NCBI GenBank assembly: GCA_965246715.1
Contig: CBDFFH010000021.1
Location: 96,001 to 160,000 of the forward strand
Length of the DNA: 64,000 bases
Direction: 5' to 3'
Source of the DNA: Chamaesiphon sp.
GTDB taxonomy: Bacteria; Cyanobacteriota; Cyanobacteriia; Cyanobacteriales; Chamaesiphonaceae
The position numbers were made by a program, and so were the translations under genes. The notes beneath the pieces were generated by a model. The model ran no database searches. It had not been told where the DNA came from and worked only from the letters and a program-made list of their open reading frames with translations. Shown here one piece after another: positions 14,774-59,475 of the stretch; the stretch's first letter is position 1, and the number at the start of each line of letters is the position of its first letter.

Positions 14774-14974
14774 TCTCGCTAAAATAATCCTAAAAAATTT
14801 CTCGATGCTAAGTAATATTCGATCTCGATCCTACAATCGCGATCGAGCTGTTGGCACCTCTAAATTGGTAGATATCTACTTGCCTTTCATCCCTGTACGA
14901 TCCCGATTAAAAAAATAAAGGTGACAGCTAGATTGGCAAGCTTTATCGGCTCTCCAGCAGTTAAGGTGATAATT

Positions 14975-15400
14975 TAACGTCAGTTCGGGATAAGGATTAC
15001 CGATTAATGACTCCTGCCTTCGTTTCGGAACCGTCCCCAACAGATCGACCATAACCCAAAGATCGATTCCCATTGCGAAGCTAATGCGAAGCGCTAATCG
15101 CTGCCAACAAACTAACCCTTGTGCAGCGACTCGCGCTCGTCGGGTTTCCCGACGGTTTAGCGAGTCAAGACAGGGGAGTTTGAGGGGCGGCACTCCGCTG
15201 TCTTGACCCAAACGCACGCTGTAGGCGAGCGAAGCGAGACGTGTCGCCAGACGGAGACCTCAGCGCGATTTGGGTCGCTCCTCAACGGGGGATCTGGGGG
15301 TCGGCACCCCCAGATCCGGGTTCTCCTCACTAGTAACCTCTAGGAAAGCACCAATCCAAGAATGGCCTAAAACGGAGATCCTTAACCCGAACTGACGTTA
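14975..15400. mobile_element. MITE with 23-bp TIR TAACGTCAGTTCGGGWTAAGGAT
   Basis: 14975-14997 vs 15378-15400 inverted, one mismatch; same TIR family at 21017-21194 and 48441-48832. Confidence 0.8.
15083..15353 (+). repeat. 144-bp hairpin repeat, copy interrupted by 47-bp and 80-bp insertions
   Basis: Removing 15126-15172 and 15199-15278 leaves 144 bp colinear with 57679-57822. Confidence 0.85.
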
Positions 15401-15632
15401 ATAAGGAGATCGTTTTAGCCCAATCTTCCCCCATAAGTCCAGGAGACCCGCTTTATTTACAGCAAAGCTTCCTAAATCTAAAATCCGAAATCCAAAATCC
15501 AAAATAGCAAGACTTCGCCGACTGATGACGAAATGCATATTTCTCACCAAGATGACAGATGCGGTTCCAGCCACATGCTTGATAAAATAGTTAGTAGGTA
15601 CCAAATAAGCCGATCGCTCCAGAGCCAATCCC

Positions 15633-54215: not shown

Positions 54216-55508
54216 GTGGATAAGTTTATGAATAATTACTATCCGGTCATTATTGTTGGTGGCGGACAAGCAGGGCTATCGATGAGTTACTGTCTGAAAG
54301 AACGCGGTATCGACCATATCATCTTTGAGAAAAATAGCATCGGGCATGAATGGCGATCGCGCCGCTGGGATACATTTTGTTTGGTGACTCCAAACTGGCA
54401 ATGTCAACTTCCGGGCTATCCCTATCCTGGTAACGATCCTGATGGATTTATGCGCAAAGACGAGATCGTCGAATATCTCGAAGGCTATGCCACGATGTTT
54501 GCGCCACCGATAAAGGAAGGAGTAACTGTCACCAAAGTTTGTCAAATCGAGGCGGGTGGCTTCGCTGTGAGTACGAGTATCGGCGAATATACTAGCGATC
54601 GAGTGGTAATTGCCGTCAGTGGATACCATCTCCCCAAGATTCCTCGGCTGGCGGAGCGGTTGCCGACATCGATACATCAACTGCATTCCTCCCAATACAA
54701 AAATCCTGAATCTTTGCCAGCAGGTGGGGTGTTAGTTGTGGGGACGGGACAGTCTGGCTGTCAGATTGCTGAAGATCTGCATCTAGCGGGGAAACAAGTA
54801 CATTTAGCTGTCGGTGGCGCACCCAGATCGCCGCGTCAATATCGTGGTAAAGATGCAGTTGAATGGCTCGATCGGATGGGTTATTATAATCTGTCGATCG
54901 ACGAACATCCCAAGAAAGAGACGGCGCGGAGTAATACCAATCACTATCTGACTGGACGCGATGGCGGACGGGAGATTGACTTGCGGAAATTTGCGATCGA
55001 GGGGATGAAATTATATGGTCGATTGAAGTCGATTACTCCAGATAAGTTGGAGTTTCAAGCCGATTTACGGCAGAATCTCGATCGAGCTGATGCTGTCTCA
55101 GAAAATATCAAACAAAGTATCGATCGATTTATCGAAAAAGAAGGGATCGCTGCACCCACAGAAGCACCTTATCAACCAGTTTGGCAACCAGAAACAGAGA
55201 TTACCGAATTAGATTATTTTGCGGCAAACATTCAAACGGTAATTTGGTCTACAGGTTTTCAAACTGATTTTAGTTGGGTCGATTTACCAGTTTTTAATGG
55301 TAGTGGCTATCCCCATCACGATCGTGGGGTTACTAGTTTGCGCGGTTGCTATTTCATTGGATTGACGTGGCTATATACCTGGGGTTCTGGTCGATTTTCT
55401 GGTGTCGCTCGCGATGCTAATTATCTCGCCGACCAGATCGGCATGATGCAAAAGGCTGCTTCGACAAGTGCTTGGAGTATTGTAAATGAATTTCTGTTGG
55501 GTTCGTAA
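54216..55508 (+). CDS. nitH: MSMEG_0569-family flavin-dependent oxidoreductase (Nit1C)
   Basis: VGGGQAG, RWDTFCLVTPNWQCQLPG, VGTGQSG, YTWGSGRF. Confidence 0.9.
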   Translation: MDKFMNNYYPVIIVGGGQAGLSMSYCLKERGIDHIIFEKNSIGHEWRSRRWDTFCLVTPNWQCQLPGYPYPGNDPDGFMRKDEIVEYLEGYATMFAPPIKEGVTVTKVCQIEAGGFAVSTSIGEYTSDRVVIAVSGYHLPKIPRLAERLPTSIHQLHSSQYKNPESLPAGGVLVVGTGQSGCQIAEDLHLAGKQVHLAVGGAPRSPRQYRGKDAVEWLDRMGYYNLSIDEHPKKETARSNTNHYLTGRDGGREIDLRKFAIEGMKLYGRLKSITPDKLEFQADLRQNLDRADAVSENIKQSIDRFIEKEGIAAPTEAPYQPVWQPETEITELDYFAANIQTVIWSTGFQTDFSWVDLPVFNGSGYPHHDRGVTSLRGCYFIGLTWLYTWGSGRFSGVARDANYLADQIGMMQKAASTSAWSIVNEFLLGS

Positions 55509-55531
55509 CGGTTGTTACTGCAGAATTAAAA

Positions 55532-55668
55532 ACCTATCGATTTAGACAGGTGGAATAAAGATTGCTGGGCGATTTTTACTCGATCGATCTGGTGACCTAA
55601 TCTAATCATTAGACTTCTGGACTCAGTATTGAGAGATACAAAATTCTCGATCGGGCTGACGATAATCT
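55532..55668 (+). promoter_or_regulatory. NtcA-type promoter with upstream lux-box-like operator (nitB operon)
   Basis: ACCTATCGATTTAGACAGGT 55532-51; GTA-ttgagaga-TAC 55626-39; 23 nt; TAATCT 55663-68. Confidence 0.78.
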
Positions 55669-55704
55669 GTCGTTAATCTTAACAGCTTAAAGGAGCGTGA
55701 TTCG

Positions 55705-56187
55705 ATGCCAGAAGTTACTAAACCCGCCCATCAAACTGGTGATTTCTTTGTTGATTATGAGGAGAAGGTGTTCCCTGATGTGAAAGCCGAACCTGGGGAA
55801 AAAGCGTTGGTAACTTTTCATACTGTAGCGTTTGAAGGCTCGATCGGGTTTGTGAATTTGTTGCAAGCGACGCGGATTCAACGGAAGGGGTTTGAGACTT
55901 CGATTTTGCTGTATGGGCCGGGGGTGACTTTGGGTGTGCAGCGGGGTTTTCCGAAGTTGGGGGATGAGGCGTTTCCGGGGCATCAAAATTTTAATAATCA
56001 GATTACGAAGTTTATGGCTGAGGGTGGGAAGGTTTATGCTTGTCGGTTTGCGTTGCAAGCGTTGTATGGGCATGGGGAGCCGTCGTTGATTCCGGGGATT
56101 CGGCCGATTAGTCCGTTGGATGTGTTGGATATTGTGTTGATGCATCGGAAGGAGGGGGCGTTGATTTTGGACACTTGGACTTTGTAG
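55705..56187 (+). CDS. nitB: MSMEG_0572/Sll0783-family nitrogen starvation protein (Nit1C)
   Basis: [56 protein letters not shown]. Confidence 0.93.
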
Positions 56188-56207
56188 TTCTTTATTGGTA
56201 GGTATTA

Positions 56208-56351
56208 TGGTGCTTTCCTAGGGATTGCTGGTGGGTGGAACCCGGATCTGGGGGTGCCGACCCCCAGACCCCCCGTTGAGGAGCGGGGTGCCGCCCCTCA
56301 AACTCCCCTGCACAAGGGTCGATCTGTGGGAAGCTTGGCGCGCTTCGCATT
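56208..56351 (-). repeat. 144-bp hairpin repeat, intact copy
   Basis: Reverse complement colinear with 57679-57822; two GC-rich hairpins. Confidence 0.9.
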
Positions 56352-56420
56352 GGTGCGTTCTGTCAATTGTTGGCAGGAGATCGCAATTAAATGACTTTGT
56401 TTGAGATCTGAATTGCTCTT

Positions 56421-56450
56421 AGTCCCCCCATTTAAGGGGTTGGGGGATTC
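56421..56450 (+). repeat. Short C-run/G-run REP-like repeat
   Basis: agtccccccatttaaggggttgggggattc. Confidence 0.5.
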
Positions 56451-56555
56451 CAACTTCAAAGGCAGTAATTCGATCTCGATCGATTCATCACAAAACTCGA
56501 TCGATTTTAATTGGTAATTAGTTTGGGTTTAGAGATTTATGTGAGGTAAAGACTT

Positions 56556-57560
56556 GTGGATGATGGGCGGAAGGTGCGGGCGGCGGCGGTGCAGATTAGT
56601 CCGGTGTTATTTAGTCGAGAGGGGACGACTGAAAAGGTGTTGAAGGCGATCGCTGATGCGGCTCTAGAGGGGGCGGAATTGGTGGTTTTTCCGGAGACAT
56701 TTATTCCTTACTATCCTTACTTCTCATTCATTCAGCCGCCCGTGTTGATGGGTAAAGAGCATATGCGGCTGTATGAGGAAGCGGTGGAAGTGCCTAGTGC
56801 GGTTACGGAGGCTGTGAGTGAGGCTGCTCGATCGCATCAGATCGTCGTCGTGTTGGGGATTAACGAACGCGATCGGGGTTCGATTTACAACACCCAATTG
56901 ATTTTCGATGCCGATGGGACACTCCTCCTCAAGCGACGCAAAATCACGCCTACCTTCCACGAGCGGATGGTGTGGGGACAAGGTGATGGAGCGGGATTGA
57001 AAGTAGTGGATACAGCCGTCGGCAAACTGGGTGCCCTAGCCTGTTGGGAGCATTACAATCCCCTCGCGCGGTTTGCACTGATGGCGCAGCACGAACAAAT
57101 TCACTGCGGCCAATTCCCCGGATCGATGGTCGGTCAAATCTTCGCCGACCAAATCGAAGTTACCATCCGCCATCATGCCCTCGAAGCAGGTTGTTTTGTC
57201 GTCAACGCCACAGGTTGGCTCTTACCCGAACAGGTGAGTCAAATTACCCCCGATGAAAAACTCCAAAAAGTTCTCAGCGGTGGCTGCCACACCGCCATTA
57301 TCAGCCCTGAAGGAAGTCATCTGTGTCCGCCAATTACCGAAGGCGAAGGCATCGCGATCGCCGATCTAGATTTCTCCCTCATCACCAAACGCAAACGAAT
57401 GATGGATTGCGTCGGACACTACTCCCGCCCCGATCTCCTGCAATTGCAATTGAATCCTCGTCAGTGGGAAGTGATGCAAAATCTCGCGATCGTACCCAAT
57501 CTCGCACCAAATCCCGACCCACCCCGCCCTATCGGGCACCCCTCCGAGGAGGGGAATTGA
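56556..57560 (+). CDS. nitC: Nit6803-family nitrilase (Nit1C)
   Basis: Catalytic FPE, RRKITPT, LACWEH; C-terminal tail runs through a REP-like repeat (57515-57558). Confidence 0.95.
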
Positions 57561-57576
57561 GAGTGAGTTCGATCGA

Positions 57577-57604
57577 TTTTGGATTTTGGATTTTGGATTT
57601 TGGA
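57577..57604. repeat. TTTTGGA heptamer tandem repeat
   Basis: About 4 copies; related runs near 15475-15505 (inverse) and 48367-48382. Confidence 0.8.
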
Positions 57605-57678
57605 TCGTTGCTATCCTTTCAGGACTGAAGCTGTAAAGTCAAATCGCAACACCCTACCAGCAACCAACTGGACACACT

Positions 57679-57822
57679 AATGCGAAGCGCGCCCCGCTGC
57701 CCACAAACCAACCCTTGTGCAGGGGAGTTTGAGGGGCGGCACTCCGCTCCTCAACGGGGGGTCTGGGGGAAGCCTCCCCCAGATCCGGGTTCTACCCACC
57801 AACAATTAACAGGAAAGCACCA
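57679..57822 (+). repeat. 144-bp hairpin repeat, intact copy
   Basis: aatgcgaagcgc...ttgaggggcggcactccgctcctcaa...ggtctggggg/cccccagatcc...aggaaagcacca. Confidence 0.9.
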
Positions 57823-57873
57823 GTCGAAATTCCACCCCACCAGCAACCTAAAACCAAGCACCAATCCGAACAC

Positions 57874-58941
57874 ATGAACAAAAAACAACTAATCACCGAA
57901 CTCCAATCCAAAGGATTAAAACTAATCGAAACCACCGGAGTATCCGGCAGAAAAGGCGGCGCAGGCCCCTCCGACCACAAAGCCATCACCCTCGACGGCA
58001 CCACCATCATGGTACCCATCTACACCGAAACCGCCACCCACTCCCCCTACACCGCCACCCCCACCACCCTCAAACTCCCCAACAACCACACCATCCCGAT
58101 CGAATTCCCCACCACCCCCAACTTCTACCACCTCAGCACCGCCGACGGCATCCCCTACTGGAAAATCGCCCTCCTTCACAGCCACGACGTACTCGCCACC
58201 ACCGTCCAGCAAACCTGTATGCGCTACCGCAACCCCGACACAGTTTGCCAATTTTGCGCGATCGAACAATCCCTCACCGCCGATCGCACCATCGCCCGTA
58301 AAACCCCCGCTCAACTTGCCGAAGTCGCCGCCGCAGCAGTCAACCTCGACGGCATCAAACACATGGTCATGACCAGCGGTACCCCCAATACCAGCGATCG
58401 CGGTGCCGCCTACCTCGCTGAATGCGCCCAAGCCATCAAACAACGAGTCGATCTCCCCATCCAAGCCCAATGCGAACCTCCCGATGACTTTAGCTGGTTC
58501 CAGAAACTCAAAGATGCTGGCGTAGACAGCCTCGGAATGCACCTCGAAGCCATTACCCCCGCCGTCCGCGCCAACATCATGCCCGGAAAAGCCGACGTAC
58601 CTGTCGAGTATTACTTCCAAGCCTTTGTCGCCGCCGTCGAAGTCTTTGGACGGGGACAAGTCAGCACCTATCTCCTCGCTGGATTGGGCGACACCTTAGA
58701 AGCCTTGGTGGCAGGTTGCGATCGATTAATCCAAATTGGCGTTTATCCCTTTGTCGTACCCTTCGTCCCAATTACTGGAACTCCATTAGAGCATCATCCA
58801 GCACCGAGCAGTGAGTTTATGTATGACCTCTATCAACAAGTTGGCGCATTGCTCGCGCGATCGAAGATGTCATCTAAAGACATCAAGGCTGGCTGTGGCA
58901 AATGTGGCGCTTGTTCCGCTCTATCTAATTTTGAAGATTGA
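57874..58941 (+). CDS. nitD: MSMEG_0568-family radical SAM protein (Nit1C)
   Basis: RKGGAGPSDHKA; Cx9Cx2C (CMRYRNPDTVCQFC); C-terminal CGKCGAC. Confidence 0.93.
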   Translation: MNKKQLITELQSKGLKLIETTGVSGRKGGAGPSDHKAITLDGTTIMVPIYTETATHSPYTATPTTLKLPNNHTIPIEFPTTPNFYHLSTADGIPYWKIALLHSHDVLATTVQQTCMRYRNPDTVCQFCAIEQSLTADRTIARKTPAQLAEVAAAAVNLDGIKHMVMTSGTPNTSDRGAAYLAECAQAIKQRVDLPIQAQCEPPDDFSWFQKLKDAGVDSLGMHLEAITPAVRANIMPGKADVPVEYYFQAFVAAVEVFGRGQVSTYLLAGLGDTLEALVAGCDRLIQIGVYPFVVPFVPITGTPLEHHPAPSSEFMYDLYQQVGALLARSKMSSKDIKAGCGKCGACSALSNFED

Positions 58942-58968
58942 TAAACTCTATTTAATATCCAGCCAAGC

Positions 58969-59475
58969 ATGTCCGACTATCTATTTAAACTAGCCAAAAC
59001 TCAACCGGAAATATCTGCATATTTCGATCTTCGTCACAAAATATTTGTTGAAGAACAGGGTGTGTTTAAAGGAAATGATGTTGACTCGATCGATGAAATT
59101 TCTCATCCCATTATTGCCGTCGAACCTGATGCGACAGCTCTCGAAGTTCTGGGTGTCGTCCGCATATATGAAGCCGAACCGAGACTGTGGTATGGCGGTA
59201 GATTGGGTACTCATCCCGATCGCCGCAAAGGTTGGCAAATCGGTAAAGGATTGATTTATAAGGCAGTCACTACCGCGAACACTTGGGGCTGCGATCGATT
59301 CCTCGCTACCGTCCAAATCCAAAATGTCCGCTTCTTCCAACGCTTACATTGGGACTCGATCGAAGAAATCGAAATCCACGATATCGCTCATCATCTCATG
59401 CAAGCAGATTTAAACTATTACCCAGCAGGTAATGAGATTCGACCGAGATTGTTAGAATATGGTCGAGCATCTTGA
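58969..59475 (+). CDS. nitE: MSMEG_0567/Sll0786-family GNAT protein (Nit1C)
   Basis: IFVEEQG, VVRIYE..WYGGRLG, FLATVQIQNVRFF..LHW. Confidence 0.9.
   Translation: MSDYLFKLAKTQPEISAYFDLRHKIFVEEQGVFKGNDVDSIDEISHPIIAVEPDATALEVLGVVRIYEAEPRLWYGGRLGTHPDRRKGWQIGKGLIYKAVTTANTWGCDRFLATVQIQNVRFFQRLHWDSIEEIEIHDIAHHLMQADLNYYPAGNEIRPRLLEYGRAS

Follow-up and report, generated by a model that had tools for sequence, protein, structure and literature searches.

Why should the third codon positions of neighbouring genes on one DNA strand be filled almost entirely with G and T in one gene and with A and C in another? The question is raised by the three nit genes of Chamaesiphon sp. that lie in a 64,000-nucleotide stretch of contig CBDFFH010000021.1 (assembly GCA_965246715.1, positions 96,001 to 160,000), referred to here as the window. 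The genes nitB, nitC and nitD, recognised by TIGR04044, TIGR04048 and TIGR04043, are all on the plus strand in a Nit1C-type cluster, and the spaces between them hold two inverted copies of a 144-bp double-hairpin repeat (Table 1). Our analyses of this genome (G000; 6.1 Mb, 45.8% GC, 99.8% complete, with CGATCG very abundant) and of other genomes support the conclusion that the repeat orients a local, transcription-independent substitution bias in the surrounding DNA, which we call a halo. The phenomenon is solid, extends beyond the nit locus and appears to be undescribed; its mechanism is something that we infer.

A substitution bias oriented by the 144-bp repeat

Recounting of the codon endings gave exactly the figures of a first-pass annotation, made from the sequence by eye: 104 of 109 codons in nitB 55861-56187 and 41 of 48 at the start of nitC end in G or T, while 104 of 109 codons in nitD 57874-58200 end in A or C, the exceptions being ATG, ATG, CCG, TGG and CTT (binomial p ~1e-25 for each). 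The same annotation had argued that, with all three genes on one strand, neither codon preference nor transcription could produce the change of sign. We found that both can indeed be ruled out, as the A/C excess follows the strand of the repeat and is seen in genes of either orientation. No sigma-70-like promoter was found in 55400-59000. An assembly artefact was also ruled out, because a second genome, G011 (3 contigs), shares both nit copies and the same bias profile, with its genes intact.

When all 55 copies found in G000 by a profile search were oriented, as had been proposed, the 53 copies outside the nit locus showed the same oriented A/C skew as the nit pair. At four-fold degenerate sites within 600 bp of these 53 copies, the fraction of A/C on the repeat strand was 0.578 downstream and 0.538 upstream, compared with 0.508 and 0.491 (standard deviation ~0.012) around random intergenic positions, and 0 of 1000 random draws reached the observed values. 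In the first 150 bp, A/C amounted to 0.81 in genes on the same strand as the repeat (0.52 far away) and to 0.62 in genes on the opposite strand (0.49 far away). In an unbiased scan, words of the 144-bp repeat ranked first among intergenic 9- and 10-mers by downstream A/C content. In addition, among 96 strong halos called without reference to repeats, some of which may be affected by residual gene miscalls, 12 lie within 1 kb of a copy, and every one of these carries the predicted sign; the null distribution of concordant halo-copy pairs had a mean of 0.8 and a maximum of 5. Copies in other genomes gave A/C fractions of 0.70 (G011), 0.64 (G020), 0.66 (G024) and 0.65 (22 other loci) in the first 300 bp, and 67 loci found with the double-hairpin pattern agree with the oriented bias, although these copy sets overlap in part and kin are non-independent.

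The halo reaches up to ~1 kb on both sides of a copy, always on the repeat's own strand. The earlier view that the bias fades over several hundred bp stands (on the nitD side it is halved at ~760 bp from the hairpins), but a one-way 3' process is not supported, since both sides are affected. In G000 the upstream excess is somewhat below the downstream excess at equal distance; in other genomes the two were +0.12 and +0.16 at 250-350 bp, and +0.08 and +0.08 at 500-700 bp. Over 116 copies the two sides were correlated (Spearman 0.55), with a downstream fraction above 0.65 in 27 copies and below 0.35 in 1. Because the halo is two-sided, nitC can be understood as the overlap of two upstream halos.

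These properties bear on the possibility that the repeat is a priming or fork-pausing site, at which one-strand synthesis by a low-fidelity polymerase or a Pol I-type tract leaves the bias. Strand-specific hairpins and the four Prim-Pol genes of G000 are consistent with such a site, and so is the fact that no long-range replichore skew was detected in G000 (autocorrelation 0.0002-0.0003 beyond 2 kb; contig means within 0.013), so that local sources dominate. However, priming and nick translation are one-way and the halos are not; two opposite copies only 1.3 kb apart are both saturated, which is unexpected with a fixed fork direction; and intergenic GCGAAGC words, a motif of the repeat, show no skew when alone (0.512, 213 sites), while some halo copies (L077+ and L080) were detected without that part. 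We therefore consider a priming or pausing site improbable.

The short REP-like repeats at 56421 and 57515, which had been offered as alternative drivers, could be discarded, as neither family has an oriented skew genome-wide and the first is missing in the halo-bearing G011. Among other repeat families of G000, heptamer tandem repeats and ~15 palindrome or motif patterns had no aggregate oriented skew, which the symmetric patterns among them could not have shown.

Structure and distribution of the repeat

Table 1. Features of the nit locus, with the third repeat copy of the window
Feature	Position	Strand	Remarks
nitB	55705..56187	+	MSMEG_0572/Sll0783 family; G/T third positions (+ strand), near-saturated from ~55860; downstream halo of copy 1
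144-bp repeat, copy 1	56208..56351	-	Marked strand minus; hairpin 1 ~56276-56301, hairpin 2 ~56244-56270; orthologous site occupied in G011
Short REP-like palindrome	56421..56451		Missing in G011 although the same halos are there
nitC	56556..57560	+	Nit6803 nitrilase; start G/T-rich, end A/C-rich; upstream halos of both copies
Short REP-like palindrome	57515..57558		At nitC end; traces (by eye) in 8 genus orthologues without extreme bias; at most a minor contributor
144-bp repeat, copy 2	57679..57822	+	Marked strand plus; hairpin 1 57729-57754, hairpin 2 57760-57786
nitD	57874..58941	+	MSMEG_0568 radical SAM; A/C third positions, background by ~58780; downstream halo of copy 2
144-bp repeat, third copy	14972..15401 (core 15083-15357)	+	Two nested insertions; within terminal-inverted-repeat carrier; no halo

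The inverted copies 1 and 2 are 88% identical. Copy 2 has the GCGAAGC motif at its 5' side and an A/C-rich tail, and its folding as DNA scored a z of -3.8 relative to shuffles. Two adjacent G/C-rich hairpins are conserved among the copies, with one-sided and some two-sided changes, and 3 of the 29 predicted pairs show compensatory changes. In 78 distinct cores, the non-Watson-Crick cells of hairpin 1 comprised 56 G.T and 2 A.C, counter to the direction of the local bias, which places the fold on the strand drifting to A/C. The third copy of the window is a nest of elements, in which carrier ends (a motif present ~200 times in the genome) enclose the hairpin core and the core encloses two other small dispersed repeats.

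The repeat was matched in 22 of 24 sampled genomes of the genus and in 0 of 16 genomes from other families, and the 67 matches to the exact double-hairpin pattern in a species-level genome collection were all from Chamaesiphon. A related double hairpin was found in 10 other genomes among 400 sampled from the phylum, six of these being from genus g39. Rfam covariance models gave 0 matches at E<=1 in 55500-59000, blastn found no match to the repeat in the plasmids and phages searched, among which near relatives may be missing, and viral contigs contained 0 pattern matches. As regards an oriT/ssi-type site, the Prim-Pol genes are unlinked to the copies; relaxase families were not searched.

A 245-codon antisense shadow open reading frame (ORF) over nitD (57922-58659, minus strand), opened by the halo, misled an amino-acid-based gene caller.

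Orthologues lacking the repeat and the age of copies

The expectation that nit orthologues without the repeat would lack the extreme bias was borne out in eight genus orthologues and two outgroups. In the eight genus orthologues nitD has a weaker A/C rise, reaching 0.8 in single 40-codon bins, and part of the nitD lean may therefore predate the repeat. Similar comparisons were possible for hemL, a gene on contig C12 and a gene on contig C43 (orthologue loci kept, 22 of 25, 14 of 16 and 19 of 22, respectively), in which G000 and G011 alone combine a copy facing the right way with a series of biased bins. Reverse causality, in which the repeat was inserted into DNA that was already skewed, is unlikely because the orthologues of hemL (20), the C12 gene (12) and the C43 gene (17) that lack the repeat have no run of extreme bins; one of those counted for C43, L266, does carry a copy, which faces the opposite way. 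A fourth gene has an A/C-rich start in 20 of 20 orthologues kept, with a peak beside an intact copy in G020 and an apparent repeat tail in many of the others. We read this shared start as a ghost halo that has outlasted a decayed repeat.

The copies differ in their surroundings. At least one end of the carrier was present at 29 of 52 scored copies and none at the two nit copies; the ends alone have little skew (0.519 downstream and 0.500 upstream, 208 sites). Intact copies without carrier ends averaged 0.68 (n=14, nit pair included) and intact copies with ends 0.52 (n=13), a comparison made post hoc (p=0.004), and split or partial copies averaged 0.54. The copy at 15083 has no halo, as first reported, but its disruption does not suffice as the reason, since it is also carrier-borne and intact carrier copies mostly lack a halo too. 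At three sites, a carrier-type copy in G011 corresponds to a G000 site without a same-oriented copy, where the intergenic DNA is replaced rather than empty, and the six halo copies examined were all shared by G000 and G011. The simplest reading would be that copy age explains which copies bear halos.

Substitution spectrum and divergence

Substitutions in five halo genes were polarised against the consensus of distant orthologues, which gave few sites. At four-fold sites on the repeat strand in halos, changes had occurred at 24 of 27 G (16 to C and 8 to A), 19 of 22 T (13 to C), 14 of 27 A (10 to C) and 9 of 60 C; the corresponding numbers in controls were 7 of 23, 11 of 37, 2 of 23 and 30 of 64. 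Changes from G/T to A/C exceeded the reverse by 41:7 in halos, as compared with 14:25 in controls. The standing four-fold composition of 12 halos was 365 C, 152 A, 48 G and 44 T, with no evident neighbour effect, and C on the repeat strand is the sink of the bias. Third positions within CGATCG resist the halo (22 G/T and 22 A/C inside these sites, 251 and 1078 outside, in 12 halos), the density of the sites being normal.

Pure deamination of single-stranded DNA (ssDNA), with C>T and A>G only, had been suggested as the source of the bias. This was rejected, as a transition-only model lost to one with added G>C and C>G terms (log-likelihood difference, delta lnL, 15.2 for 2 parameters; few sites, distant outgroups). 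The term mutator had to be abandoned too: synonymous divergence between G000 and G011 was 35/769 in saturated halos and 131/1075 outside (103/956 without the unusually divergent far part of the C12 gene), and was lower in the halo in every within-gene comparison. Change towards the sink was fast and back-change is now suppressed. The slower divergence of saturated halos therefore argues for a directional ratchet and not for a standing mutator. As for the claim that protein residues are pushed, it held for NitD (14 changes from G/T to A/C and 1 reverse at codon positions 1-2) and failed for NitB, which in G000 shares many residues with outer outgroups and has an uncertain consensus ancestor. 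Amino-acid-level changes pooled over the five halo genes were 42:18, compared with 19:14 in controls (p=0.26).

A wider form of ssDNA damage would have the complementary, G/T-rich strand repeatedly single-stranded on both sides of the repeat, through resection or through binding or displacement of the repeat strand, with deamination, abasic sites and lesion bypass fixing C>T, A>G and C>G. C>T and A>G have the right polarity for the strand so exposed, enrichment of exposed strands in G and T is an established effect according to the sections of PMC10030826 used here, the turnover of non-C bases is raised on the stem branch, and the decay spans hundreds of bases. We nevertheless regard this explanation as unlikely, because frequent C>G and T>G would be required on the exposed strand and because added damage alone should not cut divergence 2-3-fold on the short branch between G000 and G011.

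A rapid approach to a favoured state followed by slow divergence would be equally expected from selection for a weakly pairing A/C-rich flank on the folding strand, or for a G/T-rich flank on the other, and it is consistent with selection that fold and halo share a strand, that both sides are affected and that amino-acid changes overall are not significantly biased. However, C dominates and not A, and runs of C would presumably interfere with the G-rich hairpins; copies that are carrier-borne or in g39 have persisted although they lack halos; and selection would have had to bring hundreds of sites, as far as 1 kb off, near saturation. Selection thus seems distinctly improbable.

A proposed nick-directed repair of the repeat strand

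The spectrum in the halos resembles common polymerase mispairs. Taken together with the suppressed back-change and the two-sided reach of ~1 kb, this points to a strand mark that misdirects repair. The explanation that we tentatively favour, and would place somewhat short of probable, is that a nick in the repeat strand makes it the one that MutS-MutL repair always replaces. A structure- or sequence-specific nick on the hairpin-forming repeat strand would substitute for the nascent-strand signal, and MutS-MutL would remove and recopy that strand within ~1 kb on either side. Errors or lesions in the complementary strand (G opposite T, T opposite G, G opposite G or A, and C deaminated to U) would be copied and fixed, while identical errors on the repeat strand would be erased. 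The repeat strand would thus undergo T>C, G>A, G>C and A>C, and change in the opposite sense would be suppressed. The protein responsible for the nick would act in trans, the terminal-inverted-repeat carrier would spread the copies, and halos would build with age and could outlast a decayed repeat. The first step, a nick or gap, is common to this explanation and to ssDNA damage.

In the passages of PMC8744996 used here, nicks already in the DNA are given as a possible starting point of repair in the absence of MutH, and the Escherichia coli system is described as acting on either side (5' or 3') of a mismatch over distances up to 1 kb. G000 encodes MutS and MutL, whereas MutH and NucS were not found in this 99.8% complete genome, and the halos have a two-sided reach of ~1 kb, all in agreement with nick-directed, MutH-less repair. 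A postulate of the same kind has been made for cyanobacteria in the HIP1 creation model (Elhai 2015, PMC4390886), which is itself hypothetical and in which, in the portion of that paper considered, a strand-specific nick leads MutS/MutL to degrade one strand, so that mutations of the other are kept within ~1000 nt in MutH-less species. The signal in that model is methylated GC and the product one motif; the present case would have a dispersed hairpin as its signal and a compositional halo as its product.

Several observations weigh against nick-directed repair. No recurrent nuclease was found by Pfam among 81 of 90 candidate neighbour proteins (the other 9, ORFs overlapping the repeat, were left out), Uma2 and TnpB-like giving one match each; and genes for Y1, DUF559, Prim-Pol, GxxExxY, four-helix-bundle and small GIY-YIG proteins are at least 10 kb from copies or on copy-free contigs. 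The first-pass annotation had proposed a search for co-occurring genes, among them HUH/RAYT, primase and DUF559, and none of these three kinds is linked to any copy: of six Y1_Tnp matches, five are at least 11 kb from a copy and one is on a contig without a copy, with 0 among the 81 neighbours. Neither clustering of 346 neighbouring proteins nor inspection of the interiors of inverted pairs yielded a cognate gene. In addition, 84 of the 96 strong halos have no 144-bp copy nearby, and no common motif was evident by eye in 104 halo onsets lacking the repeat; 4 of the 14 intact carrier-less copies are at or below 0.50, i.e., without a halo; an opposite-facing copy 259 bp before a C43 orthologue (L266) gives no G/T lean; and conversion is less complete at two-fold C/T sites (27/54) than at four-fold sites (19/22), for which nick-directed repair offers no explanation. 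Finally, the double hairpin of g39 (L163-L189 and L333-L352; 41 matches) has no halo, being 0.53 at all distances, although g39 genomes have MutL. It follows that the hairpin is insufficient or that the near-identical g39 copies are young. The g39 element is abundant and has the 5' motif in common with the 144-bp repeat, and it could serve as a natural control in identifying the trans factor.

GxxExxY cassettes

The sole GxxExxY gene of G000 (TIGR04256/PF13366; cassette C46:96534-100488, L196) lies between inverted short repeats, with G/T-rich DNA on the left and A/C-rich DNA on the right. Over 22 loci of the genus, the strongest of which are one orthologous locus, the A/C fraction climbed from 0.23 ahead of the gene through 0.36, 0.56 and 0.66 within it to 0.70 beyond its end. 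In G000, eighteen pattern matches to the cassette repeats, including the two of the cassette itself, gave 0.60 downstream and 0.57 upstream, with no null computed. The A/C fraction is higher in the last third of the gene than in the first at 13 of 13 loci more than 50% identical to the G000 protein and at 14 of 24 overall (Cyanobacteria class); by eye, subfamilies with opposite-facing repeats show the opposite trend, and G/T prevails throughout in two that have direct repeats. The genes compared are homologous, and the flanks outside them are often weak. Since the cassettes bear the same strand-marked signature, we count them in favour of nick-directed repair. The loci examined were L191-L215 and L309-L332, and the genus set adds a lobe of opposite sign 0.5-1.2 kb upstream.

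This extra lobe, also seen 0.5-1.2 kb off at the 3' ends of several conserved genes, would suit a recombination or gene-conversion hotspot, with strand-specific resolution of heteroduplex tracts between chromosome copies or with incoming DNA, as would the turnover of intergenic content at repeat sites between G000 and G011. However, the lobe is missing around 144-bp copies in aggregate, and a strand mark at the repeat would still be required, making a conversion hotspot highly improbable.

Returning to nick-directed repair, it is possible, though we advance it with more reserve than the nick itself, that the double hairpin and the GxxExxY-cassette repeats are two families of an undescribed prokaryotic class of cis-acting strand-marking repeats. 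Their nickases would be site-specific analogues of MutH that hijack the strand choice of mismatch repair, rewriting host codons, and partly proteins, within a kilobase and leaving ghost halos behind.

Relation to known systems

Replication, transcription, translation and foreign origin are the usual accounts of local base composition and codon use in bacteria. In the present case it is a short non-coding element that dictates which way adjacent host genes change, almost to saturation and whichever way the genes face. Halos would confound inferences of codon bias, horizontal transfer and dN/dS (the ratio of nonsynonymous to synonymous rates) near such repeats, and they give a clock for repeat age. 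If the repeat strand is indeed nicked, the repeat would be a natural handle on repair-strand choice in MutH-less bacteria, and a role for the GxxExxY protein family would be suggested. No description of repeat-oriented substitution halos was found in the literature searched, by literal matching in main texts that included few subscription papers.

Of the known elements, REP/REPIN-RAYT systems, as far as excerpts of PMC3116915 and PMC3733652 describe them, are alike in being dispersed, extragenic, imperfect palindromes with compensatory changes, frequent inverted pairs and strand-specific ssDNA hairpins, the REP being acted on in trans. The 144-bp repeat differs in having no terminal GTAG/CGTC tag at the hairpin foot (alignment of 24 copies) and no Y1 gene adjoining any copy; it thus shares the strand-specific hairpin of REP elements and lacks two features of REP/RAYT membership. 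A flanking substitution bias is unmentioned in these excerpts, and the words 'skew' and 'nick' occur 0 times in PMC3733652. GTAG-type repeats in G000 had no halo, but the search pattern was symmetric and so blind to an oriented effect.

Replication strand asymmetry, in the sections of PMC10030826 concerned, lies on the same keto/amino axis, with G+T on one strand (the leading strand in bacteria) and A+C on the other. The halo differs from it in that it spans 1 kb, takes its direction from the repeat, is up to 95% saturated and occurs in a genome with no detectable long-range skew. Mitochondrial gradients are a further case of replication strand asymmetry. Kataegis at resected breaks has a polarity that the inverted pairs recall, being G/T-rich on the left and A/C-rich on the right as in resection from a central break. 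In contrast to kataegis, as treated in the same sections of PMC10030826, a single 144-bp copy gives the same sign on both sides, all four bases are involved without clear context, and the effect is cumulative over evolution. Cyanobacterial miniature inverted-repeat transposable elements and small dispersed repeats (SDR), such as Nezha, are similar in that many 144-bp copies are enclosed by terminal inverted repeats and contain small insertions nested within them. They differ in that the halo tracks the hairpin core, mostly in carrier-less copies; the repeat may be identical with a named SDR.

Further halos

Genes like gltB, metH, smc, acnB and chlH, as judged from their translations, have a late A/C lobe and are rich in G/T over their last 100 codons, although they lie near no 144-bp copy (C2:229244-233888, C2:161435-164984, C15:139793-144392, C52:133000-136648, C51:16414-18997 and C39:85587-89592). 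A few kb downstream of the full metH-like and acnB-like genes are near-identical partial duplicates of their 3' halves (C2:155625-156963 and C51:3943-5248), which suggests integration hotspots that replace gene ends. On a 37-kb contig, a mobC/relaxase-like pair (C10:14879-17890) has a strong A/C halo from an oriT-like intergenic region and a sign flip at the relaxase end. In Rhs-like genes (C21:190893-202884 and C36:109008-116715), the sense third positions are G/T-rich in the conserved core just before the variable tip. Lastly, inverted heptamer arrays flank two TIGR02436 four-helix-bundle genes (C9:118320-118640 and C15:411335-411655), of which only the first has a switch from G/T to A/C within the gene.

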